A stretch of DNA of 37,268 nt from Candidatus Udaeobacter sp. (GTDB lineage Bacteria > Verrucomicrobiota > Verrucomicrobiia > Chthoniobacterales > UBA10450), in assembly GCA_036264275.1 (NCBI GenBank), contig DATARG010000164.1:1-37268 (forward strand), in the 5' to 3' direction. The position numbers were made by a program, and so were the translations under genes. Under the pieces are notes generated by a model. The model saw only the letters and a program-made list of their open reading frames with translations, had not been told where the DNA came from and made no database searches. Positions within the stretch are counted from its first letter, which is position 1; each line of letters starts with the position of its first letter. Of this stretch, positions 2,816-26,402 are shown one piece after another.

Positions 2816-4833
2816 TCTTCGGCGAACTAAGGCGGCGCAACGTTTACAAAGTGGCGATCGCCTATGCCATGGCCGGCTGGGCGCTCTCTCAAGGAATCGC
2901 CCAGGTTTTTCCAGTGTTCGACGTTCCGAATTGGATCATCCGTTTGATCGTGTTGCTGATCATCATTGGATTACCGATTGCGCTTGTCCTGGCCTGGATG
3001 TTTGAGATCACGCCGCATGGAATCAAGCGCACTGAAACGGCCGACGCGATGCCGGCAACCTCGCGGCAAAATAAGCGCGCATGGATTTATGTGTTCGTCA
3101 TCGGCGGTCTTGCATCCATGGGCCTATTTTGTCTGGGCCGTTATACCGCGCCAAGCCTTTCGCCTCTACCCGCCAAGTCGATCGCGGTTCTCCCCTTCGA
3201 AAACCTGAGCGAAGACAAAGCGAACGCCTATTTCGCCGACGGCATCCAGGTGGAGATCCTGACGCGGCTGGCCAAAATCGCGGACTTGAAAGTGATCTCG
3301 CGCACTTCGACGCAGCAGTATCAGAGCAAACCGGCTGATCTTACCAAGATCGCGAAGCAGCTTGGCGTCGCGAACATTGTTGAAGGTAGCGTCCAAAAAA
3401 CAGCGGATCAGGTACGGGTCAATGTTCAGTTAGTCAATGTGCAAACGGACTCTGAGCTCTGGGCGGAAACCTACGATCGAAAGTTGACTGACATCTTTAG
3501 CGTGGAGAGTGACATCGCCAAACGAATCGCAGGATCCTTGCAAGCGAAGCTGAGCGGCCATGAGGAGCAAGCGTTGGCTGCCGCGCCGACGAACAATCCG
3601 AAAGCTTACGACGCGTATTTACGTGGGTTGCATTTTGAAGCTCTCAGCAACTACATGAGCGATGCGCTATTCAAAGCCATCGATTTTTATGGGCTGGCGG
3701 TCCAACTTGACCCAAATTTTGCGCTCGCTTGGGCGCGACTGTCAGGTGCGCATGCGCTTGTGTACTTTCTGCGCAACGATACTACTGCCGCTCGCCGCGA
3801 TGCAGCTAAAACAGCTTTGGACCATGCGCTGAAACTGCAGCCAGACTCACCCGAAACCCTGCTATTTTTGGGTTATTATCAATACTGGGTCTTGCGCGAT
3901 TATGGTCTGGCCAAAAGCACTTTCGAGCGTGTCAGCAAGATGTTGCCAGGCCGGAGCGAAGTTTTGTACGCCCTCGGCGCAGTTGCTGGACGCGAAGGAA
4001 ATTGGGATCAAAGCATTGCTTACTGGGAGCGCGCCCTGGCGCTCGATCCTCGGAATCCGGCGTTATTGGCTGAAGTGGCAGTTGCTTACGCGATGGTTCG
4101 ACAGTTCCCGGCCGCGCTAAAGCTCTACGACCAGGCACTGGATATCCTCCCTAACGAGCCGTCTACGATGGCGTTAAAGGCCAGCATCTACCAGGCGGAA
4201 GGTAACCTGCAAGAGGCTGCCAACGCGCTGATCCAAGTAAACGCAGAAACGCAATCCAACACGGCTGTTCGAATCAAGTTTACCCAATTGAGACTTGAAC
4301 GAGATTTCGCTGAGAGCAATCAACTCGTGCAGGTGCGACAGGCTAAACTGCGATTTACCGCCGGCATTGACAAGGGTGTCAAGGAGGTGGGGATCGCATT
4401 GTACCAACATCTGACTGGTGACACCGCTCATGCAAAAGTGACTGCTGAACAGGCGCGGAACACACTCCAGCCACTTGGCAAGGACCAACCGGACAACGCT
4501 TTCATCGCGGCCGCGCTGGCGGTAGCTGATGCCATACTTGGCGAAAAGGCGTCCGCCATCGACGAAGCGCAACGTGCAGTTGCGCTTTTGCCCAGTAGCA
4601 AAGATCGAGTGTCCGGGCCAGGCTTTGAAGAGAACCTGGCGCTAGTCGACATGATGATTGGCAAGAATAGTCGTGCGATATCAATTCTTACACAGTTGTT
4701 ACAAACGCCGTATGGCGGCTGGCTCTATAGCCCGTGCCCCATCACGCCAGCTCTGTTAAGGCTCGATCCAATCTGGGATCCTTTGCGCGCCAATCCGGCC
4801 TTTCGAAAACTCTACGACCAAAAGCAGCCTTGA
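2782..4833 (+). CDS. membrane-anchored TPR-repeat protein with TolB-N-like domain
   Basis: 683-aa ORF. N-terminal RRRNVYKVAIAYAMAGWAL plus TM helices, then SIAVLPFENLSEDKANAYFADGIQVEILTRL (TolB-N/CsgG-like module), then repeated TPR-like A..Y..AL.LDP segments. Confidence 0.7.
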   Translation: MAEDQEVNPKTFFGELRRRNVYKVAIAYAMAGWALSQGIAQVFPVFDVPNWIIRLIVLLIIIGLPIALVLAWMFEITPHGIKRTETADAMPATSRQNKRAWIYVFVIGGLASMGLFCLGRYTAPSLSPLPAKSIAVLPFENLSEDKANAYFADGIQVEILTRLAKIADLKVISRTSTQQYQSKPADLTKIAKQLGVANIVEGSVQKTADQVRVNVQLVNVQTDSELWAETYDRKLTDIFSVESDIAKRIAGSLQAKLSGHEEQALAAAPTNNPKAYDAYLRGLHFEALSNYMSDALFKAIDFYGLAVQLDPNFALAWARLSGAHALVYFLRNDTTAARRDAAKTALDHALKLQPDSPETLLFLGYYQYWVLRDYGLAKSTFERVSKMLPGRSEVLYALGAVAGREGNWDQSIAYWERALALDPRNPALLAEVAVAYAMVRQFPAALKLYDQALDILPNEPSTMALKASIYQAEGNLQEAANALIQVNAETQSNTAVRIKFTQLRLERDFAESNQLVQVRQAKLRFTAGIDKGVKEVGIALYQHLTGDTAHAKVTAEQARNTLQPLGKDQPDNAFIAAALAVADAILGEKASAIDEAQRAVALLPSSKDRVSGPGFEENLALVDMMIGKNSRAISILTQLLQTPYGGWLYSPCPITPALLRLDPIWDPLRANPAFRKLYDQKQP

Positions 4834-19107: not shown

Positions 19108-19896
19108 ATGAAACACTTTGTAATTTGGCTGTTGTTCGTTGCGAGCTCGGTGCTTGGAGCTGAAGAGGTCAAAGATTTCGGCCGTGACCGGCTTAACAGC
19201 TCGCCTCGACATGGGGAGTGGGTTGATATCAAAACCGGTCAGCGAACAGTTAAAGCGTTCGTTGTTTACCCCGAGAGCAAAGACAAAGCGCCAGCGGTGC
19301 TGGTAATCAGCGAAATTTTCGGCCTGACAGATTGGGTCCGCAGTCTCTGCGATCAATTGGCCGAGAATGGCGTCATTGCCGTGGCGCCAGATCTACTTAC
19401 CGGGCAAAAATTCGAAGACGTCGATGCTGCGCGCAAAGCAATCTCGGCCTTGCCACAAGAGCATGTAAAGGGCGATCTCGACGCAACATCAGATTATGTG
19501 TTGACGAAAATTCCGTCGTGCAACGGTACGCTCGCAGTGTGCGGCTTCTGCTGGGGCGGGGGAGTCACGTTCGCGTACGCGAATGAAAATCCGAAACTGA
19601 AAGCTGCGTATTCATTTTACGGTGTGGCGGCGGATTCGGCAGACAAAGTGAAAAACATTGCGTGCCCAGTCTATGGTTTTTATGCCGAGAACGATGAACG
19701 CGTAGATGCAACCGTTCCGAAGGCCGAAGAGTTAATGAAAGCCGCCGGGAAAAAGTATGAGCCGGTGATTTACAAGGGCGCTGGCCACGGTTTTATGCGC
19801 TCCGGCGAACCAACCAATCCTGCCGTTCGCGAAGCCGACCGAAAAGCCCGCGACGAAACGTGGGTTCGCTGGAAACATTTACTAAAACAATTGTGA
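19108..19896 (+). CDS. dienelactone hydrolase family protein (secreted)
   Basis: 262-aa ORF with a signal peptide, nucleophile motif CGFCWGGG and histidine motif GAGHGF. Confidence 0.85.
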   Translation: MKHFVIWLLFVASSVLGAEEVKDFGRDRLNSSPRHGEWVDIKTGQRTVKAFVVYPESKDKAPAVLVISEIFGLTDWVRSLCDQLAENGVIAVAPDLLTGQKFEDVDAARKAISALPQEHVKGDLDATSDYVLTKIPSCNGTLAVCGFCWGGGVTFAYANENPKLKAAYSFYGVAADSADKVKNIACPVYGFYAENDERVDATVPKAEELMKAAGKKYEPVIYKGAGHGFMRSGEPTNPAVREADRKARDETWVRWKHLLKQL

Positions 19897-19934
19897 CCGA
19901 ATTAGACCCGAAAATTGGGTCGAATTCGTTAGGC
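19897..19934 (+). repeat. truncated attC or attI-type junction forming the left boundary of the array
   Basis: Short hairpin CGAATT-AGACCC-gaaaatt-GGGTC-GAATTCG ending in GTTAGGC (19928-19934). TTAGGC is the exact complement of GCCTAA at attC1. No convincing R'' box is present. Confidence 0.35.
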
Positions 19935-19936
19935 GT

Positions 19937-20389
19937 ATGAAACACGCGCTCCTCCTTCTGGCTCTTGTGCCGACAGTGGGTTTTGCCCGGCGCGCCCGAT
20001 AAACCAGTGAAGACCGCCGGCCAACAGGCTTACGGCGCGCTGAAGAAAGCAGAAGCGCCCTACATTGCGAAGGCACGCGCGACATATCCCGCCGCGAAGA
20101 AGCGCTATCTGGCTGGCCTGCCACCAAGTATCAATTTGAGGTTCGCAAGCGGCTAACGGATTCGGACGGCGGCGCCTTCGAAGAGGTCTTCGTTGAAGTC
20201 GAGGCCGTCAAAGATGGAAAAGTCTACGGTCGCATCGGTAGCGAGTTGGGTGCGGTCCGGTCGTATCGTCAATGGCAGCGCATTTCGTTTCCTGAGTCGG
20301 ATGTTCTCGATTGCACCATTGTTCATCCAGACGGGCATGAGGAAGGCAATTATGTTGGGAAGTTCATCGACACATACAAGCCCGAATAG
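19937..20389 (+). pseudogene. DUF2314-like secreted protein, cassette 1, disrupted by two compensating frameshifts
   Basis: ATG 19937 gives the signal peptide MKHALLLLALVPTVGFA, then TAA at 20000. Protein-like reading continues in another frame (ORF 19965..20156: PGAPDKPVKTAGQQAY...AAKKRYLAGLPP). It returns to the first frame near 20120 (KYQFEVRKRLTDSDGGAFEEVFVEVEAVKDGKVYGRIG...GNYVGKFIDTYKPE, stop 20387-20389). Confidence 0.5.
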
Positions 20390-20511
20390 GCCTAACCAAG
20401 CGCTGGATCGAACCGCTGACCGGCGTGAAAATTGCTTTCGATGACTTCAACGCTGAAATCCGAAGCACAACTAGTTCTTATCACCGGTCGCTCAGCTTGG
20501 TCTCGTTAGCC
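20390..20511 (+). repeat. attC site 1
   Basis: GCCTAAC-CAAGCGCTGGATCGAAC ... GGTCGCTCAGCTTGGTCTC-GTTAGCC, 122 bp. It starts directly after the cassette-1 stop and ends 2 nt before the next ATG. Confidence 0.8.
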
Positions 20512-20513
20512 GT

Positions 20514-20792
20514 ATGAACCGCATTCGGGCTTTACTAGAACAGCTACGCGACGAGCTAAGCGATGGCAACGAGCACCGATTCGCGGGCGATGTTGACGCG
20601 GCGCTCGCTTCCTGTGATGCCACAGTGGCAGCTTTTGTTATGTCGGACGAGCTTTGGGGTGGTGCTGGTTCGATCGCCGACCAAGCATTGTGCGGGAGAT
20701 CACCCGCACGTCGCCAACTCGAGCAGTTGCTCATTGAGCTTGGACGCGAGCAAATGGCGAGAGGCTACAGAAACCCTCGGGCAGAAGTGTAG
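20514..20792 (+). CDS. hypothetical 92-aa cassette protein (possibly truncated)
   Basis: ATG lies 2 nt after attC1. The predicted soluble helical protein contains ELWGGAGSIADQA. After the TAG at 20790 the same frame stays open for 14 more codons to a TAA at 20835. 120 bp of apparently non-coding DNA follow. Confidence 0.55.
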   Translation: MNRIRALLEQLRDELSDGNEHRFAGDVDAALASCDATVAAFVMSDELWGGAGSIADQALCGRSPARRQLEQLLIELGREQMARGYRNPRAEV

Positions 20793-20911
20793 ACATCAGT
20801 CTTTAAAACCAGTCTGGTCAACTCAGCTCAGTAATGTTGGAGCGACGGTTGTGGTGATCTGTGTAATTGTCTTCCCGATTGCCTATCCTGGTATGCGATC
20901 ACACAAAAAAC

Positions 20912-21007
20912 ATCTGACCCATCGATGAAGCCGACGGCCCCATCGCGAAACAACTGCGATATGATCGCCATGACGCCCTGCCGTGGCTTATCCATGTCTC
21001 ATTAGAT
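20912..21007 (+). repeat. attC site 2, degenerate
   Basis: ATCTGAC-CCATCGATGAAGCCGAC ... CCGTGGCTTATCCATGTCTC-ATTAGAT, 96 bp. Inner arms are conserved, but AAC has become GAC and GTT has become ATT, so both conserved triplets are lost. Confidence 0.6.
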
Positions 21008-21061: not shown

Positions 21062-21559
21062 ATGAATGTGGAAACGATCAATGTCTGGGCGCAGCTAATC
21101 GCGTCGATCGGCGTCATCGTTTCCCTCTTTTATGTGGCGGCGCAGGTCCGGCAAAACACGCGCTCTTCACGCGCGGTTGTGGTCGATTCGCTTGCCAGAT
21201 CGATGCATGACCTTGCCATTCAGATGGCGCAAAATGACCAACTTTTGACGACTGCCAGCATGTTGAAAGACTGGAGCAACGCGTCGGAAATGGAGAGAGC
21301 GCGGTATGCATCTTTTATGCTGGGTTATTTCAAGCTATTCGAGAATGGATGGTTCCAGATGCGTCAAGGGACGCTCGAACGCGATCAATGGGAAGGGTAC
21401 GACGCATTCTTGCGCACGGTTTGGATGGTACCAACAGTCAAGACATGGTGGTCCATGAGGCGAACGTTCTTCGCGCCCGGATTTCGGAAGTACGTCGAGA
21501 ACCTCAAAGAAGCGCCCGGTGTCCCTTCACTCACTCAGCTTACGCGAACTGAAAAGTGA
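21062..21559 (+). CDS. uncharacterised N-terminally membrane-anchored protein, cassette 3 (paralogue A)
   Basis: 165 aa from ATG 21062 (the track begins at TTG 21059). One TM helix, WAQLIASIGVIVSLFYVAAQVRQNT, followed by a helical soluble domain. No family recognised. Confidence 0.75.
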   Translation: MNVETINVWAQLIASIGVIVSLFYVAAQVRQNTRSSRAVVVDSLARSMHDLAIQMAQNDQLLTTASMLKDWSNASEMERARYASFMLGYFKLFENGWFQMRQGTLERDQWEGYDAFLRTVWMVPTVKTWWSMRRTFFAPGFRKYVENLKEAPGVPSLTQLTRTEK

Positions 21560-21570
21560 TAACACAGAAC

Positions 21571-21678
21571 ATCTAACCAGGCGATGAAGCCAATCGCGGA
21601 CCGTCCGTAGGCGCAGTTTGTTCTGTTATGAATGTTACTCTCAATTCGCGCTGTGGCTGATCTTGAGTTTCGTTAGGT
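21571..21678 (+). repeat. attC site 3
   Basis: ATCTAAC-CAGGCGATGAAGCCAAT ... CTGTGGCTGATCTTGAGTTTC-GTTAGGT, 108 bp. Confidence 0.85.
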
Positions 21679-21697
21679 CTACAGAACGTTAAGACCG

Positions 21698-22165
21698 ATG
21701 TCGTTCGAACAAATATCCTATCTCGCACAAATTGTTGCCTCGGTGGCCGTGGTGGCTTCTTTGATCTTTGTTGCTTTACAGATCAAACAAAATACGGCCG
21801 CCCTCCAACGGAACGAACACAACTCCACCATGGAACAGTGGACTGTGATCCGCATGGCTATCGCGAAGCATCGCGACATCGCGGAGTTGATGACCTCCGG
21901 CCTTCATGGGGACAACCCGCTGGACGCAGCCGATCAGCTTCGATTGGAACAAATGTTGCAGGAAAACGCCTGGGCGGCCTTTCACATTTGGGACAGAACG
22001 CAGCGCGGAATCTTCCCGAAGGGGACTTTCGAAGAGACCGGTGGCGCACTCTTGGACACTTTGCTCAGAACGCCGGGTGGCGACACCCGGTGGCGCAAAG
22101 CCAAGCATATTGGCTTCCCTCCTGCGTTCGTCTCGGACGTGGACACCGCGCTCGGCAAGACCTAA
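21698..22165 (+). CDS. uncharacterised N-terminally membrane-anchored protein, cassette 4 (paralogue B)
   Basis: 155-aa ORF with TM helix LAQIVASVAVVASLIFVALQIKQNT, 13/26 identical to the cassette-3 anchor. The TAA stop is embedded in the ACCTAAC of attC4. Confidence 0.75.
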   Translation: MSFEQISYLAQIVASVAVVASLIFVALQIKQNTAALQRNEHNSTMEQWTVIRMAIAKHRDIAELMTSGLHGDNPLDAADQLRLEQMLQENAWAAFHIWDRTQRGIFPKGTFEETGGALLDTLLRTPGGDTRWRKAKHIGFPPAFVSDVDTALGKT

Positions 22166-22267
22166 CCAAGCGATGGAGCCAACAGCGAACCGTCCGTGTG
22201 CCCAGCTTTCTCTGTTTATGAACGCCACTTATAACTCGCGCGGTAGCTCATCTTGTTCTCGTTAGGC
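22160..22267 (+). repeat. attC site 4
   Basis: ACCTAAC-CAAGCGATGGAGCCAAC ... GCGGTAGCTCATCTTGTTCTC-GTTAGGC, 108 bp. Roughly three-quarters identical to attC3 by eye, including the central loop. Confidence 0.85.
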
Positions 22268-22293
22268 CTCGCGCGCACACTTCAGGAGACCTC

Positions 22294-22668
22294 ATGTTTG
22301 ACCACGTCAAATTCGGAGTCAGCAACTATGCCGCGAGCAAAGCGTTCTTCCTCAAGGCACTCGAACCTCTCGACGTATCTGTTGTCTCGGAGGGGGCGCC
22401 GACGTACGGCGTCGAGCTTAGCCCAAAGGGCAAGGCTTCATTGTGCCTTTACCAAACCGAGGAGAAGGCGGCGCATCTTCACTTGGCGTTCAGGGCCGAG
22501 AATCGCCAGCAAGTCGAAGCTTTCTATCGCGCGGCTCTGGAGGCGGGTGGCAAAGACAATGGTGCGCCTGGCCTGTGCCCGGAATACCACGCGAATTACT
22601 ATGCAGCTTTCGTCATCGATCCAGACGGGCACAACATCGAAGTGGTTTGCCACGAACCCGAGGCCTAA
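22294..22668 (+). CDS. VOC family (glyoxalase/bleomycin-resistance/dioxygenase fold) protein, cassette 5
   Basis: 124-aa ORF: MFDHVKFGVSN...HLHLAF...AAFVIDPDGHNIEVVCH. An AGGAGA RBS lies 6 nt upstream of the ATG. The TAA stop is embedded in the GCCTAAC of attC5. Confidence 0.8.
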   Translation: MFDHVKFGVSNYAASKAFFLKALEPLDVSVVSEGAPTYGVELSPKGKASLCLYQTEEKAAHLHLAFRAENRQQVEAFYRAALEAGGKDNGAPGLCPEYHANYYAAFVIDPDGHNIEVVCHEPEA

Positions 22669-22785
22669 CCAATCGATGGAGCCAACTCCGAAAGCGTTCG
22701 CGCGTAGGCTTGCCCATTTCATGGCGATACAACTTCAGCGTGTTTTCCACGACCCCGTGCCGTGGCTCATCTGTTCTCGTTAGAC
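22663..22785 (+). repeat. attC site 5 (last site of the array)
   Basis: GCCTAAC-CAATCGATGGAGCCAAC ... CCGTGGCTCATCTGTTCTC-GTTAGAC, 123 bp. Confidence 0.85.
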
Positions 22786-22865: not shown

Positions 22866-24274
22866 TTACCACCAATAGATCTGCCCAATCTTTCCATCGC
22901 TGTTTGTTGCGACAGAAAGCCAGTACCAATTTCCTCCAAGGGTCAGCTTGTATCGCCGAATTTCGCCGTCTCGTTTCTGCTCGCGGTCAGAGAAAACAAA
23001 CGAGCCTAACGCGCCATGCTCCGCGAACCATTGCCAGAACGCCTTGCTTGTCGCTGTGTTTAGAAACAGACGCATCGGCGCCCTAAATACCGCTGGTTCG
23101 TAATCGCCCTTCAACAACCCGGACACTATTTGCTTGGCTTTCGCCGTGGTCATCGGATCCGGATCAGATTTCGGTTCTGGCCGCTTCAAAATTGGCAAAC
23201 AGATGCCGGCGATATCGATAGCTAATTCATCGATGATCATGTCGCTATGATTCGTGAGAATGATGATTGTTAGTTTGTCATCGATGAATCGATAGATGAC
23301 TGACGAAAACCCCGGTGTTCCGCCGCTGTGCTGGACCAGACGATGGCCATGATAGCTGTCAACGAACCAGCCGAAGCCATAATTGAATGATGCGTCCGCG
23401 CCATCATTGGTTGCCGTGGCCGTCCAGATTTGATCGAGGCTGGACCTACTCAGCAATTTTTCACCCGAAAGCGCTGCGTCCCATTTCACCATATCCTCAA
23501 CGGTGGAAATAAGACTTCCCGCTGAGAACGCGATTGCTGGGAGGAGAATTGGCCGGTTCTCGAAACGATCGTTTTTCCATTCGTATCCTGAGGCGCGGTT
23601 CGGAACGAGCGGTTTCGGATCGGTGCTGCGTGTCGCCGCCATGCCAAGGGGCTTGAAGATGCGTTCGTCCACAAATTGCCAGTAAGATTTGCCGCTGACC
23701 TTCTCGATGATTATTCCAAGTAAATAATAACCGGTGTTATCGTACGCCCAGGTTTCGCCTGGTTGAAACTCAAGAGGCAATTTGAAAAACATCTTGAGCA
23801 GTTCATCGCGGGCCGGACTTGTTTCAAAGCCAAGGTCAGTTTTGAAAACGTCTAACCAGTGCGGAACGGCAACATGATTTTGAATTCCGGAGGTGTGAGT
23901 GAGCAGATGCCGAATTGTGATGTGCGCCACGCTTGTGGTGCTTCCGGAAAATATTCTGTGATGGGATCTTCAAGATGAAGCTTGCCGTTCTGAACCAGCA
24001 TCATGATCGCAGCGGCGGTAAACTGTTTGGTATTCGAGCCGATTTCATAAACCGTCTCTCTTGTCGCGTTCGCTCTTAACTCGAGATTCGCGAATCCGTA
24101 TCCCTGCGCTTTTGCGATTCGGCCGTCGCGAACAATCGCAAGCGAAAGGCCAGGGATATGCAACTGGCGCATCCGTGCCGAAACGTAATCGTCAATGTTG
24201 TCGGCTTTGGCAGAGATTGCCGCGCAAAAACCAATTAAAAGCGCGACAACGGCTGCACGGGACGCGACGGCCAT
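22866..24274 (-). pseudogene. serine hydrolase (class C beta-lactamase-related), split by one frameshift
   Basis: N-terminal ORF (23852..24370; likely ATG at 24274 with a signal peptide) carries SxxK (YEIGSNTKQF). C-terminal ORF (22866..23930) carries YxN (WAYDNTGYY). The reading frames meet at ...PEAPQAW / AHITIRHLLTHTSG around 23925-23933. Confidence 0.65.
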
Positions 24275-24284
24275 CTGAATCGAA

Positions 24285-26402
24285 TTACTGCCTGGCGCCT
24301 TGCAATTCGTCGGCGAGCGCGCCTGCATCGTAGACCTTTCGGAGCGCCTCAATAATCGCCGCGGAATCAACTGAAACCGCGCGGGCTTGCGTGTCCGTGA
24401 AAATGCAATCGTTCACCAGCGATTGAATGTTGCCGTCGAAAATAATGCCGACGAATTCGTTTGCCTTGTTCACCACCGGACTTCCGCTGTTGCCGCCAAT
24501 AATGTCAGCGTCGGAGACGAAATCGAATTTCGTCGGCAGATTAAGGATCGATTTTTTGTCGAGCCAGTGTTTCGGCAGATCAAATGGCGGCCGATTGTCG
24601 TGTTCGGTCGCTCGCTGATATAAACCGGCAAAATCGGTGAACGCAGGAATTTGTTTTCCGTCCTGCTCGTACCCGCGCACCGTTCCGTAGGAGAGCCGCA
24701 GGGTGAAAGTCGCATCGGGGTAACTGCTCGTGCCTTCAATGGCAAACCGCGCCTTCGCAATGTCTGCGTAGGCCTGTTTTTTGATTTCATCCTGCGCATT
24801 ATAAATCTTTCGCGTTTCTCTCGCTTGAGCATCAATCATGCGAGCGAGATCGATCATCGGATCGCGTGCGGCCTGTAGCGCAGCCGCATCCTTGCGGTAG
24901 AGATCTTTGCGGACAGTTGCGTCCTTGAGCTTTGTGCCAGTTACAAGCTCCACTGCACGCGCATGCGGCGACTTTCCAGTCAGCACTTTCTTCACCAACG
25001 GATTATCTGCGCCGAATGCCGTAGCAAAATCGGTCAGTGAATCCGTCAGTCGCAAGATCTCGTAATCGTCGTAGATCGGTTCGTCGGAAAACAGTTCCAG
25101 TTCCAGCGATTCGCGTGCGCTATCGCGAAACATCGGAATCCGTTCTCCGTTCGGTTTCGCGCGTTCATTGGCTGCTCGCAGAAGCACCCGCGCGTATTTG
25201 AAAAGATTGCCCGCTAATGCTCGCGGGCCGCGGTAGCCAACGCTGACCGGCCGTTCCTGCTCGACGTAATTGTATACTGGCGCGTTCTTCGCGATCTCAT
25301 CCTGAGCGCGTTTGATTCGGTCGTAAGCAGAAACTGTGGATTTGAATTTTGAATCGCGCGCAATCGCCTCCCGCAGTTTTCGTTCGCGCGCTTCTAACTC
25401 CGACCAGATTTGCGGATCAAGCAGTCCAGCCAGATAACCGTCGTAACGTTTCCGATTATTTTGCTCGCCAAACAAGTCCTCGCGCGCTGTGCGTGCGTTC
25501 TCGAATGAACGCCAGCTGTAGGTCGATTCCAGGACTTCGCGACGGTAAAACAAGCTCAGGACATAAGGCATATAGCGGTCGCGCATGTCGGCCATTTCAC
25601 CCAAAGTGAGTTGCCGATCGGTTTTGCCGGGGCTGCCGCTTACGAAGGTAAGTTCGCCGTCACCTGGCCCATTGGAATTGAATTTGAGAAAATGCTCGAT
25701 CTTCGCCGGCTGGCCATTTTCGTACACCCGAAAAAGACAGATATCGAGGTCGTACCGAGGATATTCGAAGTTGTCAGGATCACCGCCGAAAAAGGCCATT
25801 TGCTGCTCCGGCGCGAAGACCAGGCGCACGTCGTCATAACGTTTGTACCGATAAAGATGATAGGCACCGCCCTGGTATAATGTGACTACATCCGATCGCA
25901 ACCCGGTTTTATCTTTGCTTTCCTTTTCAATGGCAGCGATAGCGGCATTGCGCGCGCCGGAAGCCTGATCGCTTGTCATCCCTGGTTTAACCGCGCTGGT
26001 GACGCGCTCGGTTACATCCTCGATGGACATCAATACGTTCAGCTCCAGATCCGTGGACTTGATCTCATCGCCCTGCGTTTTCGCATAGAAACCGTCCCGG
26101 AGATAATTGTGCTCGGCGCTGCCAATCTTCTGCAAGGTGTCGGCGCCGACGTGATGATTTGTAATGACGAGCCCGTTCGGCGAAACGAAGGATCCGCTTC
26201 CGCCGGAGTTGAAGCGCACGCTGGCCTTTTGCAAATGTTCAAGCCACTGCGGCGACGGCTCGAACTGATATTTCTCTTTGAGTTGCTTCAGCGGCGGCGC
26301 GTTGAAAAGCCACATGCCTTCATCGGCAAATGCGGAGGCGGTCACTCCGACAACAAGGAGCAACAATGAGCAACTAAGCTGAAGGCGAAACGGCTTGTAC
26401 AT
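24285..26402 (-). CDS. S46 family peptidase (dipeptidyl-peptidase 7/11-like)
   Basis: Signal peptide from ATG 26402 (the track starts at GTG 26426). Mature N-terminus ADEGMWLF, catalytic His ITNHHVG and Ser GGNSGSPV. Confidence 0.88.
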   Translation of the reverse strand: MYKPFRLQLSCSLLLLVVGVTASAFADEGMWLFNAPPLKQLKEKYQFEPSPQWLEHLQKASVRFNSGGSGSFVSPNGLVITNHHVGADTLQKIGSAEHNYLRDGFYAKTQGDEIKSTDLELNVLMSIEDVTERVTSAVKPGMTSDQASGARNAAIAAIEKESKDKTGLRSDVVTLYQGGAYHLYRYKRYDDVRLVFAPEQQMAFFGGDPDNFEYPRYDLDICLFRVYENGQPAKIEHFLKFNSNGPGDGELTFVSGSPGKTDRQLTLGEMADMRDRYMPYVLSLFYRREVLESTYSWRSFENARTAREDLFGEQNNRKRYDGYLAGLLDPQIWSELEARERKLREAIARDSKFKSTVSAYDRIKRAQDEIAKNAPVYNYVEQERPVSVGYRGPRALAGNLFKYARVLLRAANERAKPNGERIPMFRDSARESLELELFSDEPIYDDYEILRLTDSLTDFATAFGADNPLVKKVLTGKSPHARAVELVTGTKLKDATVRKDLYRKDAAALQAARDPMIDLARMIDAQARETRKIYNAQDEIKKQAYADIAKARFAIEGTSSYPDATFTLRLSYGTVRGYEQDGKQIPAFTDFAGLYQRATEHDNRPPFDLPKHWLDKKSILNLPTKFDFVSDADIIGGNSGSPVVNKANEFVGIIFDGNIQSLVNDCIFTDTQARAVSVDSAAIIEALRKVYDAGALADELQGARQ

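Follow-up and report, generated by a model that had tools for sequence, protein, structure and literature searches.

Neighbouring integron cassettes of Candidatus Udaeobacter encode distant homologues from a large superfamily of predicted membrane-anchored proteins

The proteins encoded on integron cassettes are for the most part functionally uncharacterised. A stretch of 37,268 nt from Candidatus Udaeobacter (contig DATARG010000164.1 of assembly GCA_036264275.1; hereafter the window) was found to carry an array of five cassettes, and we concentrated on the third and fourth of them, with open reading frames (ORFs) A and B. Sequence comparisons establish that A and B share homology from end to end and belong to two separate, anciently diverged subfamilies of one superfamily. 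We hold with moderate confidence that the two genes are independent cassettes of a cluster of attC sites lacking integrases (CALIN), derive from ancient subfamilies and encode conserved accessory membrane-associated proteins. Both ORFs, first proposed in an initial annotation made from the DNA letters, proved to be real. The view taken there of two diverged paralogues from an uncharacterised family with a membrane anchor, each in an integron cassette of its own, is borne out by profile-profile alignment, by a profile of the soluble domain and by an attC covariance model. The two cassettes comprise the following elements, with attC scores from the covariance model described below.

21062-21559, + strand: ORF A (cassette 3), 165 aa, ATG start
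21570..21680, + strand: attC3, model match 21570-21676, 83.3 bits, E 5e-19, R'' CTAAC ... R' GTTAGGT, ~107-108 nt
21698-22165, + strand: ORF B (cassette 4), 155 aa, architecture like that of A, 'HNSTMxQW ... HIWDR' subfamily
22159..22269, + strand: attC4, model match 22159-22265, 94.9 bits, E 7e-22, ~106-107 nt

Homology and predicted architecture of A and B

A BLASTP comparison of A with B aligned the first 33 residues only (48% identity, E 7e-9). Alignment of the two family profiles with hhalign extended the match to residues 1-147 of A and 1-150 of B (probability 98.5%, E 3e-15), and narrow family profiles from which the anchor had been removed still aligned (E 7e-5). A non-circular test of homology used a C-terminal-domain profile derived from 88 superfamily members, each less than 35% identical to A or B. 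This profile matched both proteins end to end, A with 110 bits (E 5e-36) and B with 58 bits (E 8e-20). The likeness of the anchors had also been considered as chance hydrophobic similarity, which is excluded by the domain-only match. Pairwise identity of A and B in a MAFFT alignment is 22-23%. The anchor strings were quoted correctly in the initial annotation, with the 13 identities falling over 25 aligned residues and not 26.

In A, a transmembrane helix at about residues 8-27 is followed by a Q28-V-R-Q-N-T33 collar and a predicted cytoplasmic, all-helical domain. The mean number of Lys and Arg residues is 0.08 before the helix and 2.63 after it, a pattern present in 100 of 101 superfamily sequences. 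Since basic residues lie after and not before the transmembrane segment, an N-out/C-in topology is predicted for the superfamily proteins. AlphaFold2 with the 101-sequence alignment yielded an all-helical model with a predicted local distance difference test score (pLDDT) of 93.9 and a predicted template-modelling score (pTM) of 0.83, in which a 55-residue helix (transmembrane segment plus stalk) precedes five shorter helices.

The best-conserved region of the superfamily is the transmembrane helix with its collar (E/Q/D11, G/A14, V18, S/T21, L22, Y/F24, Q28, R30, Q31, N32 and T33). Conservation within residues 8-33 has a helical periodicity, with a moment at 100 degrees of 0.337 versus 0.130 +/- 0.065 after permutation (p = 0.002). 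At the seven positions of the conserved face (11, 14, 18, 21, 25, 28 and 32) A and B never differ, whereas elsewhere in this segment they share the residue at only 6 of 19 positions. The soluble domain conserves mainly aromatic residues and Gly or Pro (F90, E94, Q99, G103, W110, P124, W129, W130, F137 and F141), and superfamily conservation pointed to no obvious catalytic residue set in it. On this basis we defined a 'Q-x-R-Q-N-T collar' superfamily by E/Q/D11, S/T21, L22, Q28, N32 and T33 together with a helical domain containing G103, W110, W130 and F141. All of these residues are present in A, and all but the one at position 110 (F) in B.

A search with the superfamily profile, made from both families, collected 11,271 clusters at 50% identity at E<=1e-3 and 3,927 at E<=1e-10. 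The matches are mostly full-length proteins of 150-180 aa; members of the superfamily typically have ~155-175 aa and a single transmembrane helix. They come mostly from Chthoniobacterales/Udaeobacter and also from Alpha- and Gammaproteobacteria, Gemmatimonadota, Binatia and Acidobacteriota. Weak homologues are present in the culturable Microvirga lotononidis (NZ_CP141050.1) and Sulfitobacter sp. SK012 (NZ_CP025807.1). In the source databases every member is named 'hypothetical protein', with no precomputed Pfam domain. Scans of A and B against Pfam, NCBIfam and PHROGs gave nothing significant, in agreement with the earlier statement that no family is recognised. The sole curated family with a signal in the superfamily is DUF6082 (PF19560), itself uncharacterised, which matched 4 of 101 diverse members at E<=0.01 (best E 1.3e-6). 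This signal is marginal: DUF6082 matched neither A nor B even at E<=10, so that both stay below its gathering threshold, and none of 20 further members scanned singly (B-like ones and those richest in Ala, Arg, Gly and Pro). A literature library searched for DUF6082 contained nothing on it.

Structural comparison gave no significant neighbour. Foldseek searches of the PDB, run with an initial model (pLDDT 75) and the better one (pLDDT 94), had best E values of ~2-3 and template-modelling (TM) scores <=0.42. The best match in BFVD, an unnamed phage protein (E 0.12, TM 0.39), was judged not significant, and searching PDB sequences with profiles of 25 and of 101 members returned nothing below E 0.3. 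LemA-type bitopic proteins combine an N-terminal transmembrane helix with a helical bundle. A and B recall them in having one N-terminal transmembrane helix and then a helical domain of ~130 aa, and differ from them in that there is no Pfam LemA match and no Foldseek match in the PDB (best E ~2, TM<=0.42).

The cassette array and its insertion site

The attC covariance model was built from an alignment of 14 CTAAC...GTTAG elements taken from the window and from related loci (the latter designated by L numbers). RNAalifold analysis of this alignment revealed R''/R' and L''/L' stems with 18 pairs, of which 7 show compensatory changes, and the sites of the array have the GTTRRRY core of R'. Unlike this alignment-based structure, minimum-free-energy folding of single attC bottom strands gave no informative signal (z-scores -2 to +1.7). 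Applied to the 37-kb window, the model detected exactly five attC sites, all on the + strand, with 72-97 bits. Besides the cassettes of A and B, the array contains the following elements.

19928..19934, + strand: GTTAGGC core at the left array edge, found by pattern search of the sequence, directly 3' of the dienelactone-hydrolase gene
19929..20509, + strand: cassette 1, coding region with two frameshifts (three-frame translation)
20389-20509, + strand: attC1, covariance model 97.1 bits
20510..21005, + strand: cassette 2, ORF 20514-20792 of 92 aa without family match
20911-21005, + strand: attC2, covariance model 72.3 bits
22294..22783, + strand: cassette 5, right array end, with glyoxalase/bleomycin-resistance-fold ORF 22294-22668 (Pfam PF00903, E 4e-10)
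22662-22783, + strand: attC5, covariance model 80.6 bits

No full attC was detected by the covariance model at the left-edge core. The cassettes start ~0.5-0.66 kb apart, and ORF A, ORF B and the glyoxalase ORF end at or just before their own attC sites; the TAA stop codon of ORF B falls within the R'' box of attC4. Cassette 1 (19929-20392) is an apparent pseudogene, with a signal-peptide start MKHALLLLALVPTVGFARRAR, two more pieces in other frames and the end ...HPDGHEEGNYVGKFIDTYKPE. The attC3 and attC4 sites are 75% identical (83 of 110 columns), other attC pairs of the array 53-66%. The attC sites of A and B are therefore more alike than the proteins (~23%), as had been noticed initially.

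Family scans of the window's 30 largest ORFs revealed no tyrosine recombinase or integrase, although one may lie elsewhere in the genome. The array thus qualifies as a CALIN by the IntegronFinder definition (PMC4889954). The ORFs scanned are housekeeping genes, for example those for phosphoglucomutase, thymidylate kinase, DNA polymerase III delta', IspH, Ku and RuvA. The arrangement at the cassette level is ordinary. Shared with CALIN and sedentary chromosomal integron cassettes (PMC4889954) are promoterless single ORFs followed by attC sites (R''-L''...L'-R'), one orientation, the lack of an integrase nearby and an array content that differs among related genomes. The host, a Verrucomicrobial soil lineage, differs from the better-studied proteobacterial integron hosts, and, compared to known CALIN cassettes, it is particular to these arrays that one protein superfamily occupies several cassettes per array.

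The IspH protein of the window is 95-96% identical to IspH of Candidatus Udaeobacter metagenome-assembled genomes (MAGs), and DNA near-identical to the window was found nowhere outside soil metagenomes. In this Udaeobacter chromosome (Chthoniobacterales, Verrucomicrobiota) the array sits between a dienelactone-hydrolase gene, which ends at ~19880, and a beta-lactamase-fold gene; synteny with relatives breaks at ~19875-19893. The distance from the hydrolase gene to the next downstream gene is 140-185 nt in seven related genomes (~140 nt to an S46 peptidase gene in L169, L172, L173, L177, L181 and L185, ~185 nt to the beta-lactamase-fold gene in L170), compared to 3-4.4 kb in the window. Any attC within 8 kb was present at just 2 of 31 syntenic loci. 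Because of these short distances in relatives and the rarity of attC sites at syntenic loci, the five-cassette array is a lineage-specific insertion, missing at the same locus in species-level relatives. Its absence there and the occurrence of the same cassettes in different orders in other arrays would be indirect signs of cassette movement mediated by IntI. The beta-lactamase-fold gene beside the array (22866-24370, - strand) is split by a frameshift near 23850-23930 into a 172-aa N-terminal piece with an S-N-T-K motif and a 354-aa remainder that matches Pfam Beta-lactamase from profile position 93.

Age of the two lineages and their attC sites

Relatives of A and B make up 505 and 2,602 clusters at 90% identity, respectively. 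Orthologues of A are 78-95% identical to it (78-94% in species-representative genomes) and those of B 64-91%. A and B are thus not each other's closest relatives, as recent tandem duplicates would be: mutual identity is 22-23%, against 64-95% to orthologues elsewhere. Both lineages are under purifying selection, with median dN/dS ratios (Nei-Gojobori) of 0.083 for A (91 pairs) and 0.154 for B (2,838 pairs) and no pair above 1 in either.

In the initial annotation the pair was read as one cassette duplicated in place, with fast divergence of the copies driven by diversifying selection such as interaction with phages or competitors might impose. Such a duplication would fit the contrast between the attC3/attC4 likeness and the dissimilarity of the proteins, and also the distribution of the ~108-nt attC subtype, which in the fetched arrays stands behind 11 of 42 superfamily cassettes and 14 of 187 others (counts that are not phylogenetically independent). 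Against it, orthologues of each protein occur at the above identities in dozens of species, and the dN/dS ratios, with no pair above 1, speak against fast divergence under diversifying selection. Moreover, attC4 is nearer to attC sites of other genomes (81-83%), some of which follow unrelated genes, than it is to attC3. Its identity to the attC of an A orthologue in L012 is 81%, and the attC at L105:812-918, which follows an unrelated cassette, has 83% identity to attC3 or attC4. Orthologues of A and B elsewhere are also followed by quite different attC types of ~122 nt, and in CAVTMK010000002 the order is B, another cassette, A. Duplication in place with rapid divergence is therefore largely refuted, and we give it almost no credence; the attC likeness, being of a subtype found behind other A and B orthologues and behind unrelated cassettes, loses its value as a sign of local duplication. 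The higher frequency of the ~108-nt attC behind superfamily cassettes may reflect an older shared history.

Adjacency of A and B is not conserved. A B copy within 4 kb was found at 2 of 14 loci of A orthologues, the one with the order given above and L014, where the B copy is frameshifted. An operon of A and B was considered and rejected, since each of the two carries a separate attC and their order is different elsewhere.

The attC sites that follow A orthologues in L006, L007, L011, L012, L014, L016 and L022 (~4508-4635) differ in type, 107 nt versus 121-125 nt, while the proteins concerned are 92-94% identical. In L005, L009 and L013 the attC after the A orthologue is truncated past the R'' box. 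The gene-attC linkage of A orthologues seems unstable.

Genomic context and proposed role

Loci related to B were gathered with the B sequence alone, the B-subfamily profile being too variable. All A loci at >=78% identity lie in attC arrays, with an attC directly flanking the gene in most of them. Among the distant A-family loci (L017-L083), attC sites are present only in L054 and L064, where they do not flank the gene. An attC is present in 42 and flanking in 36 of 80 B loci, and the unflanked ones are mostly more divergent copies, including all proteobacterial ones. Synteny is conserved at 100 loci without attC, with genes for an M28-type peptidase, phosphoribosyltransferase, alpha/beta hydrolase and DNA ligase and, among further neighbours, an isocitrate/isopropylmalate-type dehydrogenase, an aconitase-family protein and a dihydroxy-acid dehydratase. 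Because attC sites accompany close A and B orthologues while these 100 loci have housekeeping synteny, the superfamily is primarily chromosomal, with defined subclades recruited into cassettes. Close orthologues of both proteins recur on cassettes in many soil MAGs; the possibility that homologues are ordinary core genes is true of many and not of all.

Cassette-borne orthologues of A or B with 88-93% protein identity were also observed in MAGs assigned to other phyla (L088, Terriglobales; L090, Gammaproteobacteria, on a 171-kb contig; L004, Gemmatimonadaceae), accompanied by Verrucomicrobia-type attC sites. Either inter-phylum cassette transfer or mis-binning accounts for them.

Tandem paralogy is a trait of the superfamily that also occurs outside integrons. 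Two or more members lie within 4 kb of each other at 27 of ~167 loci, usually adjacent and on the same strand. Overlapping gene pairs are present in L072-L074 (Verrucomicrobiae), and in L062/L140, L114 and L137 B orthologues stand beside other subfamilies, without attC. In an alphaproteobacterial MAG (L076:2635-7110, JAGOBA010000013) eight consecutive paralogues, all beginning with MTLEE[VI]YY[VI]SQIVAV, form an operon-like array with overlapping stop and start codons and without attC.

A third cassette-borne subfamily (motif ...LGLQIRQSNRNQRSLMQQGR...) was observed to share arrays with orthologues of A or B, in the following copies.

L015:5853-6392, third-subfamily copy
L087:3087-3839, third-subfamily copy
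L125:4647-5186, third-subfamily copy
L130:4617-5186, third-subfamily copy
L157:2287-2841, third-subfamily copy

Since this subfamily recurs beside A or B orthologues, single arrays can hold three superfamily members.

Soil metatranscriptome contigs contain close variants (85-95% identity) that span most of A and the first 120 nt of B, consistent with transcription of A and B orthologues in soil. In two soil metatranscriptome runs, a variant of the glyoxalase cassette (window 22276-22400) had a depth of ~22 and the A variant one of ~3.5.

We propose that A and B would insert with N-out/C-in orientation and that their transmembrane helix may be more than a passive anchor. The face formed by E/Q11, G/A14, V18, S21, L/V25, Q28 and N32, together with the R30-Q-N-T33 collar, would constitute a helix-helix interface; it is from the conservation of this face and collar that we infer a functional membrane interface. 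The interface could serve self-association, association of paralogues with one another or docking on a conserved membrane partner, and the cytoplasmic domain, variable and made of five helices, would be tethered to the membrane's inner face and work as a binding or regulatory module.

An unlikely variant of this scheme makes A and B a working hetero-oligomer, their adjacency being functional and not a chance result of shuffling. It would be in keeping with the loci that hold at least two members within 4 kb, often adjacent or overlapping and also outside integrons (L062/L140, L072-L074, L137, L114), and with the identity of A and B at all seven conserved face positions. However, B accompanies A orthologues at only the 2 loci of 14 named above, once in reversed order with a cassette in between and once frameshifted, the neighbours of B orthologues come from several subfamilies, and each gene with its own attC can move alone. 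It is improbable, too, that the superfamily as a whole is an undescribed class of small single-pass proteins that assemble through the polar face (E/Q11-S21-Q28-N32) into homo- or hetero-oligomers with a channel-like or membrane-signalling role. Integrons of soil Verrucomicrobia would in that case mobilise certain variants as accessory genes, and arrays of paralogues or of several such cassettes would amount to a combinatorial toolkit. Tandem arrays of divergent paralogues are typical of immunity genes, and the initial annotation had likewise thought of phages and competitors. A and B could be new small anti-phage, abortive-infection or toxin-immunity factors, with paralogue arrays diversifying specificity. 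Tandem divergent paralogues do exist, as in the eight-copy array of L076, and the conserved polar stripe of the transmembrane helix could line a pore. The two genes are also borne on integron cassettes, among which defence genes are reported to be abundant (bioRxiv 10.1101/2024.07.02.601686), and they share with the defence cassettes of sedentary chromosomal integrons described there a small size and the cassette form. Other results set them apart from those defence cassettes or speak against such a role. Models of PADLOC-DB 2.0 gave no family for A or B at E<=10. A tblastn search of 50,697 phages returned nothing for either, and one of 72,556 plasmids returned nothing for B and 3 weak matches for A. 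Homologues are mostly chromosomal, and non-cassette members stand in housekeeping synteny (M28-type peptidase, phosphoribosyltransferase, DNA ligase, dehydratases); none of their neighbours is a toxin, nuclease or known defence gene, although no systematic defence-island statistic was made. Selection, finally, is strongly purifying. We consider phage defence unlikely and prefer an accessory physiological role in association with the membrane.

Several points weigh against our preferred assignment of A and B as accessory membrane proteins in CALIN cassettes. The suggested interface is drawn from conservation patterns and one monomer model only, and the predicted topology from the positive-inside rule only. 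The metatranscriptome contigs represent variants of 85-95% identity and not the exact locus, with DNA carry-over as a possible source. The attC model was trained on Verrucomicrobial sites, so attC sites of other phyla could escape it and cassette association be understated. Given the reported wealth of defence genes in integron cassettes elsewhere (bioRxiv 10.1101/2024.07.02.601686), missing matches to known systems also leave a slim chance that the two proteins act in defence.

Worth recording here is above all the protein family: it spans over 11,000 clusters at 50% identity, with virtually no curated annotation. The helical fold, confidently predicted, has no structural neighbour in PDB or BFVD, and the membrane helix is better conserved than the soluble domain. 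No long-standing question is opened by these results. Integrons of a soil bacterial lineage that ranks among the most abundant have taken up defined subclades of the superfamily as cassettes, and the superfamily is a reasonable target for family curation and for simple work on expression, topology and interactions.

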